From IMG/VR virus record IMGVR_UViG_3300045988_020417, positions 1 through 35,443 of that record: 35,443 nt of DNA. The stretch is one strand, 5' to 3'. Position numbers and translations under genes: made by a program. Shown piece by piece: positions 2,770 through 11,245 of this stretch. Position 1 is the first letter of the stretch; the number at the start of each line of letters is the position of its first letter. The notes under the pieces are model-generated. The model did not search any database, had not been told where the DNA came from, and saw only the letters and a list, made by a program, of their open reading frames with translations. The stretch is from a virus.

Positions 2770-3207
2770 GTGGACGCAGTAGTGCGAGCAACGAGATATT
2801 TCAGCCCAATTGATCATGACAAAACAATTGAAAACGCCAAAGAGGTCTTGGGGAACTACTGGCATCACAAGCGGATCGCTCAACGTACCAAAATAGCGCT
2901 CAGAAGCCCCGTGATGGACGGCATGCCCAAGTCACCTAGCTATGGCAACAAAGCCGAGGACAAGCTCGTATCGCACGCTGACGAGCTGTACTATATAGCG
3001 TGCTGTGAAGGTGCTATTGAATCTCTGGAATCAGAGAATCATCGGCTTATACTAACAAGCTGTTACTTAACCAAACGATATAGTGACAAGCAAATAATGG
3101 ACAAGCTGTTTTTATCGAAAGCCCAGTATTATCGAACAAAACGTGAAGCGCTAATTGCATTCGCTGAGATTTGCCCATTAGTTGAAATCGAGATGAGACC
3201 TTTGTGA
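2770..3207 (+). CDS. ArpU-family late transcriptional regulator (alternative GTG start at 2782)
   Basis: About 140 aa, upstream of the packaging genes. C-terminal sigma-like segment LSKAQYYRTKREALIAFAE. AAGGAG at 2765..2770 favours GTG 2782 as the start. Confidence 0.65.
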   Translation: MDAVVRATRYFSPIDHDKTIENAKEVLGNYWHHKRIAQRTKIALRSPVMDGMPKSPSYGNKAEDKLVSHADELYYIACCEGAIESLESENHRLILTSCYLTKRYSDKQIMDKLFLSKAQYYRTKREALIAFAEICPLVEIEMRPL

Positions 3208-6136: not shown

Positions 6137-6607
6137 ATGGTTGAAAAAATCAAAAGTTTGCAGAATTTTTTAAAGTTACCTGAGAAACAGAAAAAAGCCG
6201 TTATGTTGCTGTTTTCAGGGGAAATGACGCAGGCAAAAATAGCGGAAGAAGTTAATGTTTCAGCGACAACGTTATCCACTTGGAAAACACACGAAGATTT
6301 TAGACGTGGGCAAGATGAATATACACGGTTTATGCTGCATGATTTATCATCTTCGGCCGTACTAACCATGAAAGAGCTATTGAATGCCAAGTCTGAAATG
6401 GTTCGATATAATGCCGCTTCATACATCATCGAAAAGGCTTTGAGCAGTGGTGACGAATTGAATAAACAACAGGCTCGCAAATCAAAGGCTGAGGCTGACA
6501 TCATGGAGGCCAAGGCCAAACGTGAAACTAGCGGAGACGGAACAGATGCTGTTAACGTCAATATCATCGTGCCAAATAGCAACGAGGAGCAGAAATATAA
6601 TGAGTAA
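6137..6607 (+). CDS. terS: Terminase small subunit (HTH type)
   Basis: 156 aa with the HTH MTQAKIAEEVNVSATTLSTWK. It sits directly upstream of TerL and overlaps its start. Confidence 0.65.
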   Translation: MVEKIKSLQNFLKLPEKQKKAVMLLFSGEMTQAKIAEEVNVSATTLSTWKTHEDFRRGQDEYTRFMLHDLSSSAVLTMKELLNAKSEMVRYNAASYIIEKALSSGDELNKQQARKSKAEADIMEAKAKRETSGDGTDAVNVNIIVPNSNEEQKYNE

Positions 6608-6930
6608 TATTACAATCGATATACCTAAAATCGTTTCACCTGCTTATTATCCGATGTTCACGAGCAATGCACGTTATCTCTCGTACAAGGGCAGTCGTGG
6701 ATCTGGCAAGTCAGTGGCCGCGGCTCGTAAGGTGATTGTGGATATACTACTTCACCCTTACGTCAACTGGCTGGTTATCCGGCAATACTTCGGTACACAC
6801 AAAGATTCCACTTTCGCAACCATAAAGAAGGCCGCAAGCGATCTCGGGGTATATGACCTTTTCAAGTTCACAGTGTCACCGCTTGAGATAACATATAAGC
6901 CTACTGGTCAAAAGATATTTTTCCGTGGGT
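6600..6930 (+). CDS. terL: Terminase large subunit, exon 1 (Walker A ATPase part)
   Basis: GAGGAG RBS. YKGSRGSGKS is the Walker A motif. Homology-like sequence ends at IFFRG, and the remaining ORF tail (TNQPTLNLINSVKG*) is intron read-through. Confidence 0.85.
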
Positions 6931-7035
6931 TAACAAACCAGCCCACGTTAAACCTCATTAATTCGGTTAAAGGCTAAACAGGCTAAGCTGTAGTTCAGAC
7001 CGAGCGTAGTTCTAGTATACAGCAGCCCCGGAAAA

Positions 7036-7044
7036 TGATATAAT
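7036..7044 (+). promoter_or_regulatory. Extended -10 element (TGaTATAAT) upstream of the GIY-YIG gene
   Basis: Exact TGnTATAAT match, 27 nt before ATG 7072. Confidence 0.45.
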
Positions 7045-7071
7045 GTCATTAGTGAAGGGGATGGAATTATC

Positions 7072-7557
7072 ATGTATTTAGTTTATTTATTTCAAGAAAA
7101 GTCAACAGGCAATGTTATTTACGTCGGTAGCACATCGAGAATGCAAGCACGATTGAAAGAACATAAGCGTGCGTTAGCCACTGGTAAAGGCGCTAGTAGA
7201 ATCCATAGATATATGAACTCTAAAAATTTAAAGCTGGTAAATGATGTTAGGATTATCTGGGAGTATAGTACTGATAACATGGAAGACATGCTAAAACATG
7301 AAGAATCAGAATATTACAAATGGCTACCAGCTGGTAATTTAATGAACGAGCGGCCTGGTGAAGATAGAAATGGATCTAACAATCCTAAGGCACGCGCTGT
7401 GCGTTGTTTTAACGATGGTAGAGTGTTTAAAACAATTTCTAGTGCTGCACGATATTATGGCATAACCCGACATGGAATTGATGATGTTATAAATGGACGC
7501 CGCAAGCAAACAGGACGCCGCAAGACTGGAATTGAATATAAATTTGAACGCGTGTAA
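7072..7557 (+). CDS. GIY-YIG homing endonuclease (intron-encoded)
   Basis: The N-terminus YLVYLFQEKSTGNVIYVGST...RLKEHK is a GIY-YIG module. The C-terminal repeat-like DNA-binding segment is AVRCFNDGRVFKTISSAARYYGITRHGI. Confidence 0.85.
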   Translation: MYLVYLFQEKSTGNVIYVGSTSRMQARLKEHKRALATGKGASRIHRYMNSKNLKLVNDVRIIWEYSTDNMEDMLKHEESEYYKWLPAGNLMNERPGEDRNGSNNPKARAVRCFNDGRVFKTISSAARYYGITRHGIDDVINGRRKQTGRRKTGIEYKFERV

Positions 7558-7702
7558 CGACTATCGAAAGCACCTTAAATGGTGAACGAGTAGAGTAAGC
7601 CCCAAGTGGGGTTGAAAGATGAGGGGCGAAAGCCAAGATATAGTCTGAACTTTATGGAAACATAGAGAGATATGTCGGGAACGGACATATCGTAACATAT
7701 TG

Positions 7703-8844
7703 TGGACGATGCGCTCAAGATAACCTCGATAACTACAGATGTCGGGGTTATTTGCCGTGAATGGATAGAGGAGGCTTACGAATTAAAGTCAAAATCGGCT
7801 TTTGAAACCGTTGAAGAATCCTTACGAGGCATTCTTCCTGATCCTCAAGGATTCTATCAGACCGTGATCACATTCAACCCGTGGAGCGACAGAAGCTGGC
7901 TTAAGAGTGAGTTCTTCGATGAAGATACGCGGAGACCCAACACGCGCAGTTTCACGACCACATACACGGATAACCCATGGTTAAATGATGACTACGTTGA
8001 AACCCTCAAGGACATGGTTAAGCGCAATCCTAACCGTGCCCGTGTCGCTGTATATGGAGACTGGGGCATTGCAGAAGGTCTTGTGTTTGATGGGCTGTTC
8101 GAGCAGCGCGATTTCAGTATGGAAGAGATAGCCACGTTGCCAAAAGCAGTCGGCCTTGACTTCGGTTTCAAGCATGACCCGACAGCGGGTGAGTTTATAG
8201 CCATTGATCAGCAGAACAGAGTCGTGTATATCTATGACGAGTTCTATCAGCAGGGGATGCTGACACAGCAGATTGCAGAGGCAATTGGGCAACACAAAGG
8301 CTATGGCTTGCAGATAACGGCTGATAGCGCCGAACAGAGGCTCATATCTGAGCTTTCAGGTGTATATGGTGTGCCAAACATCGTAGGCGCTGGCAAGGGA
8401 AAAGACAGCGTCTCACAGGGTATTCAATACATGCAGTCGTATCATTTCGTTGTTCATCCCCGTGTCAAGGGACTGTTGGAAGAATTCAACACTTACGTTT
8501 ATTCCAAAGACAAGTTTGACAACTGGACGAACACGCCTGAAGACGCTAATAACCATGCCTGCTTGACTGGTGATACATTGGTTGAAACTATTAACGGTAG
8601 CAAGCCAATCAGTGAGCTAGTAGGAAAAACTGGTAACGTTTATAGTCTTGACGCTGAAACTGGGAATGTAGTAGTTGATGAGTTTAGCAACGTATGCAAG
8701 ACAAGAAAACAAGCGGCAGTGTTTGAAATCGAATTAGAGGATGGGCGAACAGTCAAAGCAACAGCCGACCATAAGTTTCTTACCAAAGACGGTTGGAAAG
8801 AGTTAGCCGATTTAACAGAAGATGATGAGATTATCTCAATTTAA
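7703..8844 (+). CDS. terL: Terminase large subunit exon 2 (to 8559) fused to an N-terminal intein fragment (8560..8841)
   Basis: Walker B-like ICREWIEEA and nuclease-domain sequence run up to PEDANNHA. Intein blocks A (CLTGDTLVET) and B (TADHKFLT) follow, then a TAA stop. Confidence 0.8.
8560..8841 (+). mobile_element. Intein N-fragment (94 aa), terminated by a stop codon
   Basis: Cys1 at 8560; CLTGDTLV...GRTVKATADHKFLTKDGW. The frame closes at 8842..8844. Confidence 0.75.
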
Positions 8845-8865
8845 TGCGCCAAGATACTCCATGCA

Positions 8866-8874
8866 TGGTATAAT
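8866..8874 (+). promoter_or_regulatory. Extended -10 element (TGgTATAAT) upstream of the HNH gene
   Basis: Exact TGnTATAAT, followed by AGGAG (8882-8886) and ATG 8895. Confidence 0.45.
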
Positions 8875-8894
8875 GTATGTTAGGAGATGATTTT

Positions 8895-9530
8895 ATGAAA
8901 TCCATCACTGTAGACGGCTACCGTTTCGTAAAAGATGATCAAAGCGGTTATTGGCAATGCAACCAGTTCATTGCAAAAGAAGGAAAGCCGAAACGATTGC
9001 ACCGCTACGTCTGGGAAAAGTACCACGGTACAATAAAGCCCGGTTATGACGTCCACCACATTGACAAAAACAAAGACAACAACGATATTTCCAATTTGGT
9101 CTGTCTTTCTTCACATGACCACCAGCATTTGCACGGTGTTGAAAAGGTTAAAAACAACCATGAGTGGTTCGCTGAGTTTCACCAGCGTGGTATTGAATTA
9201 GCGCCTAAATGGCACGCTTCTGCTGAAGGACACGAGTGGCATTTAAAGCACTTCGAGGCGATGAAAGATAAACTGTACGCCAAAAAAGAATTTGTATGTG
9301 AACAATGTGGGAAAACATTTTCAGCACAAGATAACGGACACAACCGTTTCTGCTCCAACGCTTGCAAGTCAAAATGGCGTAGAAATAACCACATTGATGA
9401 TGTAGAAAGGACGTGTGTAATTTGTGGCACTAAATTCAGCGCAAACAAATATTCAAAAAAAGAAACCTGCTCACGTAGTTGTGCCTCAAAACTCTCGTTT
9501 GCAAAAAGGCGTGAAAATAAAGTCAATTAG
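8895..9530 (+). CDS. Free-standing HNH homing endonuclease between the two intein halves
   Basis: It has its own RBS and start, in a different frame from the intein. HNH core HHIDKNKDNNDISNLVCLSSHDHQHLH. C-terminal Cys-rich zinc-finger repeats (CEQCGKTF..C, CVICGTKF..C). Confidence 0.85.
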   Translation: MKSITVDGYRFVKDDQSGYWQCNQFIAKEGKPKRLHRYVWEKYHGTIKPGYDVHHIDKNKDNNDISNLVCLSSHDHQHLHGVEKVKNNHEWFAEFHQRGIELAPKWHASAEGHEWHLKHFEAMKDKLYAKKEFVCEQCGKTFSAQDNGHNRFCSNACKSKWRRNNHIDDVERTCVICGTKFSANKYSKKETCSRSCASKLSFAKRRENKVN

Positions 9531-9723
9531 TTTTTCCGGATATGAAGACGTTTATGACATGTATGTAAAGAACCACCATAACTTTGCTGTTAATGGTGGT
9601 TTTATTGTGCATAATTGTGACGCTTTGAGGTATGCGATGGAGCCGTTCACGTTCAGAACTGCCGGCCATTACATGAGCAACCAAGAACGCATTCAGACAA
9701 TCAAAAATTTAGGATTGGGGTGA
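9511..9723 (+). CDS. terL: Intein C-fragment (9511..9615, 35 aa) plus TerL C-extein (9616..9723); start uncertain (GTG 9511 or GTG 9424)
   Basis: (V/M)KIKSISFSGYEDVYDMYVKNHHNFAVNGGFIVHN followed by CDALRYAMEPF. Intein blocks F and G end in HN, then a +1 Cys. The extein carries the conserved terminase D-A-x-R-Y motif. Confidence 0.7.
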   Translation: MKIKSISFSGYEDVYDMYVKNHHNFAVNGGFIVHNCDALRYAMEPFTFRTAGHYMSNQERIQTIKNLGLG

Positions 9724-9724
9724 C

Positions 9725-11245
9725 ATGATGGATCCATTTGAAGAATCAAACTTACTTTACCAAGAAGACATTACGAGCCTCACTCCGGATCGGATCATGA
9801 AGTTCATTTTCCACCATCACGAGTATCAGCTTCCACGGCTGAAGAAGCTCGACCGATACTACAAGGGTCAAAATGAAGGCATTCTAAGCCCACAGTCACG
9901 GCGCATTGAAACCGGCAAGTCAGACCACAGAGCTGTTCACTCGTTCGGCAAGTACATCGCTGATTTCCAGACTGCCTACTCTGTTGGTAATCCAGTGAAC
10001 GTGAAGCTTGATGAAGATGACAAGCGGCTCGACCAGATTACGCGAGTGAACGACCTGGACGCGCTCAACTATGATCTGTTCCTAGATATGACGCGATATG
10101 GGCGTGCTTACGAGTATGTTTACTATGGCAGTGACTCAATCGAGCATTGTGTTCGTCTTGATCCGCTTGATACGTTCGTCATCTACTCGCTTGATGTTGA
10201 TCCGCAGCCAATCATGGCTGTTCGGTACCATTCAGTTGAATTAGTTGACGATAACAACAAGACAATTATCAACATCATCCCCGAAACGTGGACCGCGACA
10301 GAACATGACGTTTACAAGCCGACCACGGTTGGTGGTGCAATGTATTTGGATCGCAGCGAGATCATTCGTGTATTTCCAGTTGTCGAGTATGACAACAACC
10401 GTTTCCGCACTGGTGACTTCGAGCACGTGATCTCACTGATTGACCTGTACGATTCAGCACAGTCTGACACTGCTAACTACATGACTGACCTGAATGATGC
10501 GTTGTTAGTCATCAGCGGTGATATTGACGCTTTATTCAACGGTAGCACGCTTATGAGTGGTGTTGACCCTAACGATCCTGAGGCGATGAAAAAGCTCGCA
10601 CAGGACAAACTAGAGCTTATCAAAGAACAGAAAGACGCCAACATGCTGCTGCTCAAGTCTAGAATGACAGCAACCGGTCAGCAAACGAGCGTTGACGCAA
10701 AGTACATCAACAAGGCATATGACGTCAGTGGCACCGAAGCGTACAAGAAACGCGTTGCCGAAGACATTCATAAGTTCAGCCACACACCAGACCTAACCGA
10801 CAGTAACTTTGCGTCTAACGTGTCTGGTGTTGCGATGAAGTACAAGCTGCTTGGTACTGTCGAATTAGCAGCAATCAAGCGACGCATGTTTGAGAAATCA
10901 CTGTACCAACGATACTCAATCATATATGCACTCGATCAAAGCGTGTCAGGCGGCATGAAAACGGATCCTAATACGATTAAGTTCACGTTCCGCGACAATC
11001 TACCAACAGATGACATCACGCAGATTCAAGCGCTTGTTGCTGCGGGTGCAACACTGCCACAAGAATACTTGTACAGATTTGCACCAGGCGTCACTGATCC
11101 GCAAGAGATTACCGATATGGTTGCCAAGCAACGAGCAGACAGTGATTACAGTGAGGACTTGACAAACAATGACGAAAACACCGAAGGAACGGATCAAAGC
11201 GTTCGCGGACAAACAGGACAAGCAACACCGCCAGATAGCAAGTGA
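9725..11245 (+). CDS. Portal protein (SPP1 gp6-like)
   Basis: 506 aa, immediately after terL and followed by a Mu-F-like minor head protein. The size and acidic C-terminus are typical of portal proteins. Confidence 0.8.
   Translation: MMDPFEESNLLYQEDITSLTPDRIMKFIFHHHEYQLPRLKKLDRYYKGQNEGILSPQSRRIETGKSDHRAVHSFGKYIADFQTAYSVGNPVNVKLDEDDKRLDQITRVNDLDALNYDLFLDMTRYGRAYEYVYYGSDSIEHCVRLDPLDTFVIYSLDVDPQPIMAVRYHSVELVDDNNKTIINIIPETWTATEHDVYKPTTVGGAMYLDRSEIIRVFPVVEYDNNRFRTGDFEHVISLIDLYDSAQSDTANYMTDLNDALLVISGDIDALFNGSTLMSGVDPNDPEAMKKLAQDKLELIKEQKDANMLLLKSRMTATGQQTSVDAKYINKAYDVSGTEAYKKRVAEDIHKFSHTPDLTDSNFASNVSGVAMKYKLLGTVELAAIKRRMFEKSLYQRYSIIYALDQSVSGGMKTDPNTIKFTFRDNLPTDDITQIQALVAAGATLPQEYLYRFAPGVTDPQEITDMVAKQRADSDYSEDLTNNDENTEGTDQSVRGQTGQATPPDSK

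Follow-up and report, generated by a model that had tools for sequence, protein, structure and literature searches.

The stretch of DNA analysed here in full (the window) comprises 35,443 nt of the record IMGVR_UViG_3300045988_020417, a Lacticaseibacillus phage, and carries a gene for the large terminase subunit (terL) that is interrupted twice. The upstream interruption has the features of a group I intron; farther downstream, the TerL reading frame enters an intein whose N-terminal and C-terminal halves (IntN and IntC) are separated by a free-standing gene for an HNH endonuclease. The latter arrangement, a fractured gene with a split intein and an endonuclease gene between its halves, had been put forward in an original prediction made from the sequence alone, and every part of it that could be tested holds. 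The closest sequenced relative of the window is phage R3.3, which covers 57% of it at 88.5% identity and has an intein-less terL. Along the plus strand, to which all coordinates refer, the following features are found (ORF, open reading frame; SD, Shine-Dalgarno sequence; aa, amino acids):

6600 to 6930, plus strand: terL exon 1, matching Pfam Terminase_3 positions 3-97, with the start placed by alignment to the TerL of R3.3
6931 to 7702, plus strand: predicted group I intron, delimited by alignment to intron-less alleles, with a GIY-YIG homing-endonuclease ORF (7072-7557) inside
7703 to 8559, plus strand: terL exon 2, the remainder of the N-extein, matching Pfam Terminase_3 and Terminase_3C and ending in ...PEDANNHA
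8560 to 8844, plus strand: IntN, matching Pfam Intein_splicing (E=1.1e-12) and PDB entry 4o1r (E=5e-16)
8866 to 8886, plus strand: candidate control elements of the HNH gene, an extended -10 TGgTATAAT (8866-8874) and an SD AGGAG (8882-8886)
8895 to 9530, plus strand: HNH homing-endonuclease gene, 211 aa, with an HNH_3 domain and two zinc ribbons, in frame 3 (-1 relative to the intein)
9404 to 9426, plus strand: probable start of the C-fragment, SD AGAAAGGA (9404-9411) and GTG 9424, inside the HNH coding region
9424 to 9510, plus strand: N-terminal extension of the C-fragment, 29 aa, overlapping the 3' end of the HNH gene and not constrained as protein
9511 to 9615, plus strand: IntC core (blocks F and G), ending in ...GGFIVHN, covering Pfam Intein_splicing positions 121-155 and aligning to 4qfq_B
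9616 to 9723, plus strand: TerL C-extein, 35 aa (Cys+1, DALRYAMEPF..., stop), with the conserved DAxRY nuclease motif

As predicted, the TerL frame enters the intein at 8560, directly after PEDANNHA, and ends at a TAA (8842-8844) after 94 aa; all of these coordinates agree. IntN lies in frame 1 and reads CLTGDTLVET...TADHKFLT...EIISI from Cys1 onward, with the block A cysteine at 8560 and the TADH of block B both present, and it reaches 48.4 bits with PF14890 (Intein_splicing), above the cut-off of 35.8 bits. The N-extein amounts to 396 aa, or 490 aa together with IntN; its ATG at 6600 overlaps the 3' end of terS, and exon 2 is 83 to 96% identical to intein-less TerL alleles. Resumption of the original frame across the end of the HNH gene, with blocks F and G, the terminal HN, Cys+1, and DALRYA, was confirmed as well. 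Frame 1 reopens after a TAA at 9418-9420, and the ORF from 9424 to 9723 contains ...VKIKSISFSGYEDVYDMYVKNHHNFAVNGGFIVHN followed by CDALRYA...; it reads ...GVKIKSISFSGYEDVYDMYVKNHHNFAVNGGFIVHN followed by CDALRYAMEPF..., and IntC ends with ...DVYDMYVKNHHNFAVNGGFIVHN followed by C (9511-9618), that is, with a terminal His-Asn and then Cys+1. The predicted length of 35 aa for the C segment is that of the IntC core, although the segment as it had been typed out has 34 residues. On its own, the C part scores 29.3 bits with PF14890, below the cut-off, and the complete C-fragment ORF matches phrog_28563, a family of "unknown function" with proteins of about 98 aa.

Joining IntN and IntC into a reconstructed mini-intein gives full-length matches to the Npu DnaB mini-intein (4o1r, E=5e-16) and to DnaE inteins (E=1e-15), with the Npu DnaB and DnaE inteins as the nearest PDB entries; NrdJ-1 is matched at 4e-6. 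The 37-aa Npu DnaE IntC chain (4qfq_B) aligns to residues 94 to 130 of this mini-intein, and the split point coincides with the IntN/IntC boundary of DnaE. The intein-less TerL of R3.3 is uninterrupted, has 430 aa, and reads ...DANNHA-I-DALRYA at the same site (the insertion site in terL alleles of the R3.3 type lies between ...AATAACCATGCC and ATTGACGCT...), and the C-extein of the window is 72 to 92% identical to the C termini of intein-less TerL alleles. Both comparisons, with known inteins and with intein-less TerL, bear out the original prediction, and the alignments place the intein in class 1, split at the canonical endonuclease-insertion site and located inside the DAxRY motif of TerL. 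A second insertion site exists four residues away in the same nuclease motif, between ...IDA and RY (L100, L131, L142-L144, and L047), versus the window-type site between ...NH and xDAxRY.

The gene between the two halves is present as predicted, in another frame, with an AGGAG ribosome-binding site and an ORF that extends from ATG 8895 to TAG 9528-9530. It matches PF13392 (HNH_3) at 55 bits (E=6e-15; cut-off 24.8) and phrog_15471 at E=1.6e-72. The residues of the HNH motif HH..D..NN..N..H..H (H54, H55, D57, N62, N63, N67, H76, and H80) are invariant in 12 homologues, in which most of the zinc-ribbon cysteines are invariant, too, and the remainder nearly so; a PDB sequence search with the HNH protein returned spurious zinc-finger matches only. 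The SD is located 8 nt 5' of the ATG, with an anti-SD pairing energy of -8.7 kcal/mol, and the non-coding stretch between the IntN stop and the HNH start measures 50 nt. The predicted TGgTATAAT element stood in part: the sequence is there and recurs in related loci, but a promoter scan did not call it. Among 37 unique fractured loci, TGnTAnAwT is found in 17 and TATAAT in 18, within the same spacer of 35 to 60 nt, and several of these have a TTGACA 17 nt 5' of the -10 as well. Recurrence of TATAAT-type motifs in the spacer suggests that the HNH gene probably has its own promoter and that this promoter is carried along with the element, as Dassa et al. proposed for fractured genes. The RNA fold of the spacer 5' of the HNH gene has no significant hairpin (z=0.6), and therefore it provides no evidence of the translational-attenuator hairpins reported by Dassa et al. 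and by Gibb and Edgell. In diverged family members, a motif (A/T)AGATA(C/T) recurs between the putative -35 and the -10; the window has AAGATACTC at 8850-8858.

For the start of the C-fragment, the original prediction had considered either coupling to HNH translation at GTG 9511 or the use of GTG 9424. The sequence in front of GTG 9511 is as described (AAAAAGG with 1 nt between), but its anti-SD pairing is -3.8 kcal/mol with a spacer of 0. GTG 9424 has the strongest pairing among the candidates (-13.4 kcal/mol, spacer of 7 nt), and -10 kcal/mol or better is reached at only 2.2% of the positions in the window. Furthermore, among 44 unique fractured loci, the start with the best SD precedes IntC by 14 to 39 aa in 33 and by 0 to 4 aa in the other 11. 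In L055 and in the group of Lactobacillus phage CL2, an equivalent of GTG 9511 is missing. Given the strong SD and the start positions across the family on the one hand and the poor spacing and patchy presence of the coupled start on the other, GTG 9424 is the most likely start codon and would give a C-fragment of 99 aa, compared with 70 aa from GTG 9511. The overlap with the 3' end of the HNH gene is then 107 nt (20 nt with GTG 9511); the HNH and IntC ORFs overlap in all but one of the 44 unique relatives. Within 9424-9510, substitutions between alleles are mostly synonymous in the HNH frame (synonymous to non-synonymous, 4 to 1, 6 to 0, and 4 to 1), and every one of them is non-synonymous in the frame of the C-fragment. 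Therefore, this stretch evolves as HNH coding sequence.

The locus is not an isolated case. A search of IMG/VR reported 456 relatives, and in a survey of 85 loci of the HNH family, 49 are fractured, 15 have a contiguous intein with the HNH gene out of frame, 20 have a free-standing HNH gene with no intein detected, and 1 is partial. The three-ORF layout is identical in the independent contigs L003-L006 and L008, and the layout recurs in Leuconostoc falkenbergense, in a bin labelled Prevotella, in Lactiplantibacillus plantarum, in Clostridium (listed in 137 blocks of the collection), in Fructilactobacillus ixorae, and in prophages of several Firmicutes genera. Cultured, sequenced phages have it, too. 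Lactobacillus phage CL2 (NC_028835) is fractured alike, and its C-terminal TerL piece (L044, around 2490-2730) is unannotated in GenBank; in phage CL1, neither an intein nor an HNH gene was matched. In Brochothrix phage BL3, this intein occupies the identical position in TerL and is divided between gp2 and gp3 (gp3 at 2311-2607 of L002), and the last ~60 HNH codons, the zinc-ribbon part, are all that remains between its IntN and IntC (2226-2408). BL3 thus looks like a split intein without endonuclease, a later stage of the same pathway. A protein-database search with the 99-aa ORF yielded 87 clusters, almost all of 60 to 130 aa and most with PF14890, which are separately called ORFs of IntC plus C-extein. 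In phi CD119 (L052, ter2/ORF3), one stop lies in the intein linker, and the parts are annotated as separate ORFs.

We consider it very probable that terL of the window is a functional fractured gene and that TerL is made by trans-splicing of two polypeptides, one of which also needs the removal of an intron. The three parts of the element are under purifying selection: between fractured alleles separated by a dS of 0.3 to 1.0, the ratio of non-synonymous to synonymous substitution rates (dN/dS) is 0.05 to 0.14 for IntN, 0.1 to 0.2 for IntC (0.1 to 0.3 for its core at 9511-9615), and 0.06 to 0.07 for HNH. In addition, the residues required for splicing are kept. When all 49 fractured loci were inspected, Cys1 was found in 48, the TxxH of block B in 47, and a terminal (H/S)N followed by C or S in 48, which argues for splicing chemistry rather than mere association.

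Mere association is, however, what one alternative demands: the two TerL polypeptides could assemble non-covalently, with the intein halves serving for dimerisation and no splicing taking place. A precedent is a fragmented phage ribonucleotide reductase that is reported to assemble in this manner (Crona et al. 2011, PMC3045599). If binding were sufficient, the conserved Cys1, T..H, terminal HN, and +1 Cys/Ser would be expected to drift, but they are kept in nearly all 49 loci. Moreover, a HINT domain left in place would be a bulky insertion within the DAxRY nuclease motif and probably a hindrance. We therefore regard non-covalent assembly as improbable. We see just as little likelihood in a decaying terL of a defective prophage, whose fragments would be relics with no functional terminase behind them. 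In its favour, L112 appears degraded, and L003 (around 3068-3136) has a frameshift in its N-extein compared with the otherwise identical L004 and L054, which could reflect decay of this copy or faulty assembly. Yet dN/dS on IntN, IntC, and HNH is 0.05 to 0.2 across alleles with a dS of up to 1, the remainder of the window looks like an intact phage genome, with the coverage by R3.3 given above, and phages CL2 and BL3 share the layout.

If the HNH sequence were removed from the transcript, for instance as part of a second group I intron, a contiguous, cis-splicing intein would result. In the window, IntN and IntC do share a frame, and terL already holds one group I intron. However, a scan of 6800-9800 with Rfam produced no intron signal in 8842-9510 at E<=10 and found the upstream intron only; with so few non-coding nucleotides before the HNH gene and an ORF that runs into IntC, a ribozyme core could not be accommodated; CL2 and many other loci have IntN in one frame and IntC in another; and the fold of the 5' spacer is, as described above, not significant. 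We deem this explanation very unlikely. According to the last alternative, errors of sequencing or assembly have distorted a canonical intein whose HNH domain is in frame. In-frame HNH inteins are known in phages (cited in bioRxiv 10.1101/2025.01.02.630785), but this explanation is effectively refuted: 11 stops interrupt the intein frame between IntN and IntC; of 64 intein-associated loci, drawn from independent assemblies, 60 share the -1 frame of HNH relative to IntC; not one in-frame contiguous fusion is found among the 85 surveyed loci; and the substitutions are distributed as expected of two frames that overlap and are constrained separately. Nine of the intein-frame stops are inside the HNH gene, compared with 7.5 expected under synonymous shuffling of the HNH codons, and therefore the intein frame across HNH is unconstrained. 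With 11 stops and the same layout in independent contigs and genomes, the split reads as old and not as a sequencing error.

Production of the trans-spliced TerL would also require removal of the upstream interruption, which we identify from its sequence features as a genuine group I intron. Exon 1 ends in ...TTC CGT GGG T, with the junction set by alignment to the intron-less L007 and L033; the exon sequence CGUGGGU can pair with the intron sequence GCCCACG (6940-6946) to form P1 with a U.G at the 5' splice site, and the terminal G is G7702. The joined exons are in frame, giving FRG-L-DDALK versus FRG-M-DDALK in intron-less alleles. These features agree with the predicted need of the N-fragment for RNA splicing. 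A search of the whole window with Rfam at the gathering threshold gave no matches. RF00028 matches the intron at 23.9 bits (E=0.003), with the P7 core AAGAUAUAGUCU aligned, which is below the gathering score of 50; the model is interrupted by the 486-nt ORF. This ORF matches Pfam GIY-YIG at E=6.6e-6 and has a TG-extended -10 (7016-7044) and an SD of its own. Lactobacillus phage LBR48 has homologues of both intron and ORF in its terL, and a homologous intron and ORF, 66% identical over the whole element, are also found in a record named Aeromonas phage AS1, a strange host for such a sequence.

We propose the following model. A late transcript would be made, and the group I intron (6931-7702) would be spliced out. 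Translation from ATG 6600 would then yield a polypeptide of 490 aa, the 396-aa N-extein plus the 94-aa IntN. The HNH protein would be made from its own SD and ATG 8895 and probably from its own extended -10 promoter as well. The C-fragment would be translated from a start embedded in the 3' coding region of HNH and consist of a 29-aa leader, the 35-aa IntC, and the 35-aa C-extein (99 aa). IntN and IntC would associate and trans-splice, giving a TerL of 431 aa with the junction ...NNHA-C-DALRYA and the junction peptide ...TPEDANNHACDALR. The HNH protein would most likely cut intein-less terL in co-resident phages, and repair would copy the IntN-HNH-IntC cassette into the cut allele.

Trans-splicing, and with it the 431-aa TerL, is deduced from purifying selection and conserved catalytic residues; the exact start of the C-fragment, use of the promoter, and the target of the HNH protein are likewise steps that we infer. 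Several points weigh against the model. The window may be a prophage. An AlphaFold2 prediction from the single sequence of IntN and the C-fragment, concatenated, had a predicted local distance difference test score (pLDDT) of 41 and was unusable. A promoter and terminator scan of the window sequence alone gave counts at chance level and, for want of a matching -35, passed over the extended -10. The leader of the C-fragment is unconstrained as protein, and therefore evolutionary evidence does not fix the start codon. Codons that HNH needs largely dictate both signals (Cys-Gly of a zinc ribbon for GTG 9424, DDVER for the SD), and hence their conservation alone is no proof of use. A literature search, outside of which the original reports on CL2 and BL3 lay, found no description of a TerL/HNH_3 fractured family.

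The cassette appears to move as a unit into divergent terL genes. We compared the window with L054 (Leuconostoc), L075 (L. plantarum), and L005. IntN-HNH-IntC is 88 to 94% identical at the amino acid level, with a dS of 0.17 to 0.8; the flanking N- and C-exteins are 38 to 76% identical, with synonymous sites saturated. In a profile of nucleotide identity in 60-nt bins, identity rises abruptly from 52-75% to 93-95%, precisely at 8560, and drops to 25-57% in the bin from 9640, the first that is wholly past the intein end at 9615. Homing would be expected to leave such a step at the edges of the cassette. Close relatives include alleles with the intein as well as alleles that lack it, with 34 intein-less loci (L010-L043) besides R3.3. 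Two IMG/VR contigs, L007 (3731-4234) and L009 (21-524), have the same intein as a contiguous mini-intein without HNH, and their linker junctions differ. Remnants of both edges of the HNH insert are still present in L007 and suggest a deletion from a fractured ancestor, not a state before invasion.

The HNH family is also found in other contexts. Free-standing HNH_3 relatives are located beside terL in PAE1, Shemara, BP10, and Exiguobacterium phage EauM-23. In TJE1 (L045), phiCDHM19 (L046, 2161-2703), Highwayman (L047, 2501-3127), and MD07, the HNH gene is out of frame in a contiguous TerL intein. In these contiguous cases, the intein frame is stop-free across HNH (chance probability P=0.0004-0.006 for the AT-rich cases, by synonymous shuffling), which implies a dual-coding linker. 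L053 and 15 IMG/VR loci (for example, L105, L133, and L145) likewise have an out-of-frame HNH gene in a contiguous intein, and the dual-coding form occurs here in phages of Clostridium and Acinetobacter and in a Rhodobacteraceae phage. Whether the fractured IntN-HNH_3-IntC is an actively homing composite that spreads between terL genes across Firmicutes genera, with the 3' region of HNH serving as ribosome-binding site and start of IntC and with a continuum that connects it to the free-standing, dual-coding, and HNH-less split states, is in our view evenly balanced.

Fractured genes have been known since 2009. Dassa, London, Stoddard, and Pietrokovski (NAR 37:2560, PMC2677866) described 26 loci, mostly metagenomic fragments and mainly phage, in which they found GIY-YIG or Vsr-like endonucleases only; HNH endonucleases were predicted, not observed. 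As in their loci, the gene of a conserved enzyme is interrupted by a split intein whose halves enclose a free-standing endonuclease gene, IntN has 94 aa (their range is 88 to 105 aa), the 3' end of the endonuclease gene overlaps the IntC ORF and would supply its start, and control elements probably travel with the endonuclease gene. The HNH_3 endonuclease is a difference from the described set, not from the arrangement. Their single terminase locus has an atypical split point with a C part of 122 aa, whereas the window is split at the canonical site, and their overlaps are 6 to 69 bp, compared with 107 bp here if GTG 9424 is used. Furthermore, their loci are metagenomic, whereas the family described here includes sequenced, named phages and gives evidence of a cassette moving as a unit.

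The halves themselves resemble split class 1 inteins such as Npu and Ssp DnaE, gp41-1, and NrdJ-1 in sequence, in Cys1 and Cys+1, and in the split at the endonuclease-insertion loop. The dnaE halves of cyanobacteria are reported to be encoded far apart, and no endonuclease gene is known to separate them. In the window, the two halves are neighbours on either side of an intact HNH gene, and the host protein is TerL. A survey of mycobacteriophage inteins had no passage on split inteins.

Gosselin, Arsenault, and Gogarten (2025, bioRxiv 10.1101/2025.01.02.630785) reported an out-of-frame endonuclease in the TerL intein of actinobacteriophages and read it as invasion by a free-standing gene. The nuclease ORF in another frame is common to both, and the HNH relatives of the window in TJE1, phiCDHM19, Highwayman, and the 15 IMG/VR loci have just this form. 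However, the intein ORF in their cases is open and presumably cis-splicing, the endonuclease is annotated as Endo VII-like, and actinobacteriophages were surveyed; with its intein frame closed by 11 stops, the intein of the window is genuinely split, unlike theirs. Another relative is nrdA of Aeromonas phage Aeh1, split by the HNH gene mobE (Gibb and Edgell, as summarised in PMC2677866). There, too, a free-standing HNH gene splits an essential phage gene, and each ORF has its own translation signals. According to that summary, the NrdA chains of Aeh1 are active without being joined, whereas the break in the window is flanked by intein halves.

In sum, the arrangement as such is known and is present, without comment, in the GenBank phages CL2 and BL3, but the TerL/HNH_3 loci make up a large, apparently mobile, and largely unremarked family. 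With three selfish elements nested in one terL, namely a group I intron containing a GIY-YIG ORF, a split intein, and an HNH gene, the terminase of this phage would need both RNA cis-splicing and protein trans-splicing. For annotation, the lesson is that a short "hypothetical" ORF after a truncated-looking TerL and an HNH gene is the C-terminal piece of TerL, which in BL3 is called only "gp3". New canonical Cys1/Cys+1 split inteins are a possible resource for protein engineering. The family offers the states needed for a gene-breaking model (empty site, mini-intein, fractured, and HNH-decayed), and CL1 together with the fractured CL2 is a ready pair for homing experiments. If the fractured cassette is indeed a homing composite that is connected with the free-standing, dual-coding, and HNH-less states, these phages would provide a natural series, in culturable phages, for testing the origin of split inteins and of the association of inteins with endonucleases.

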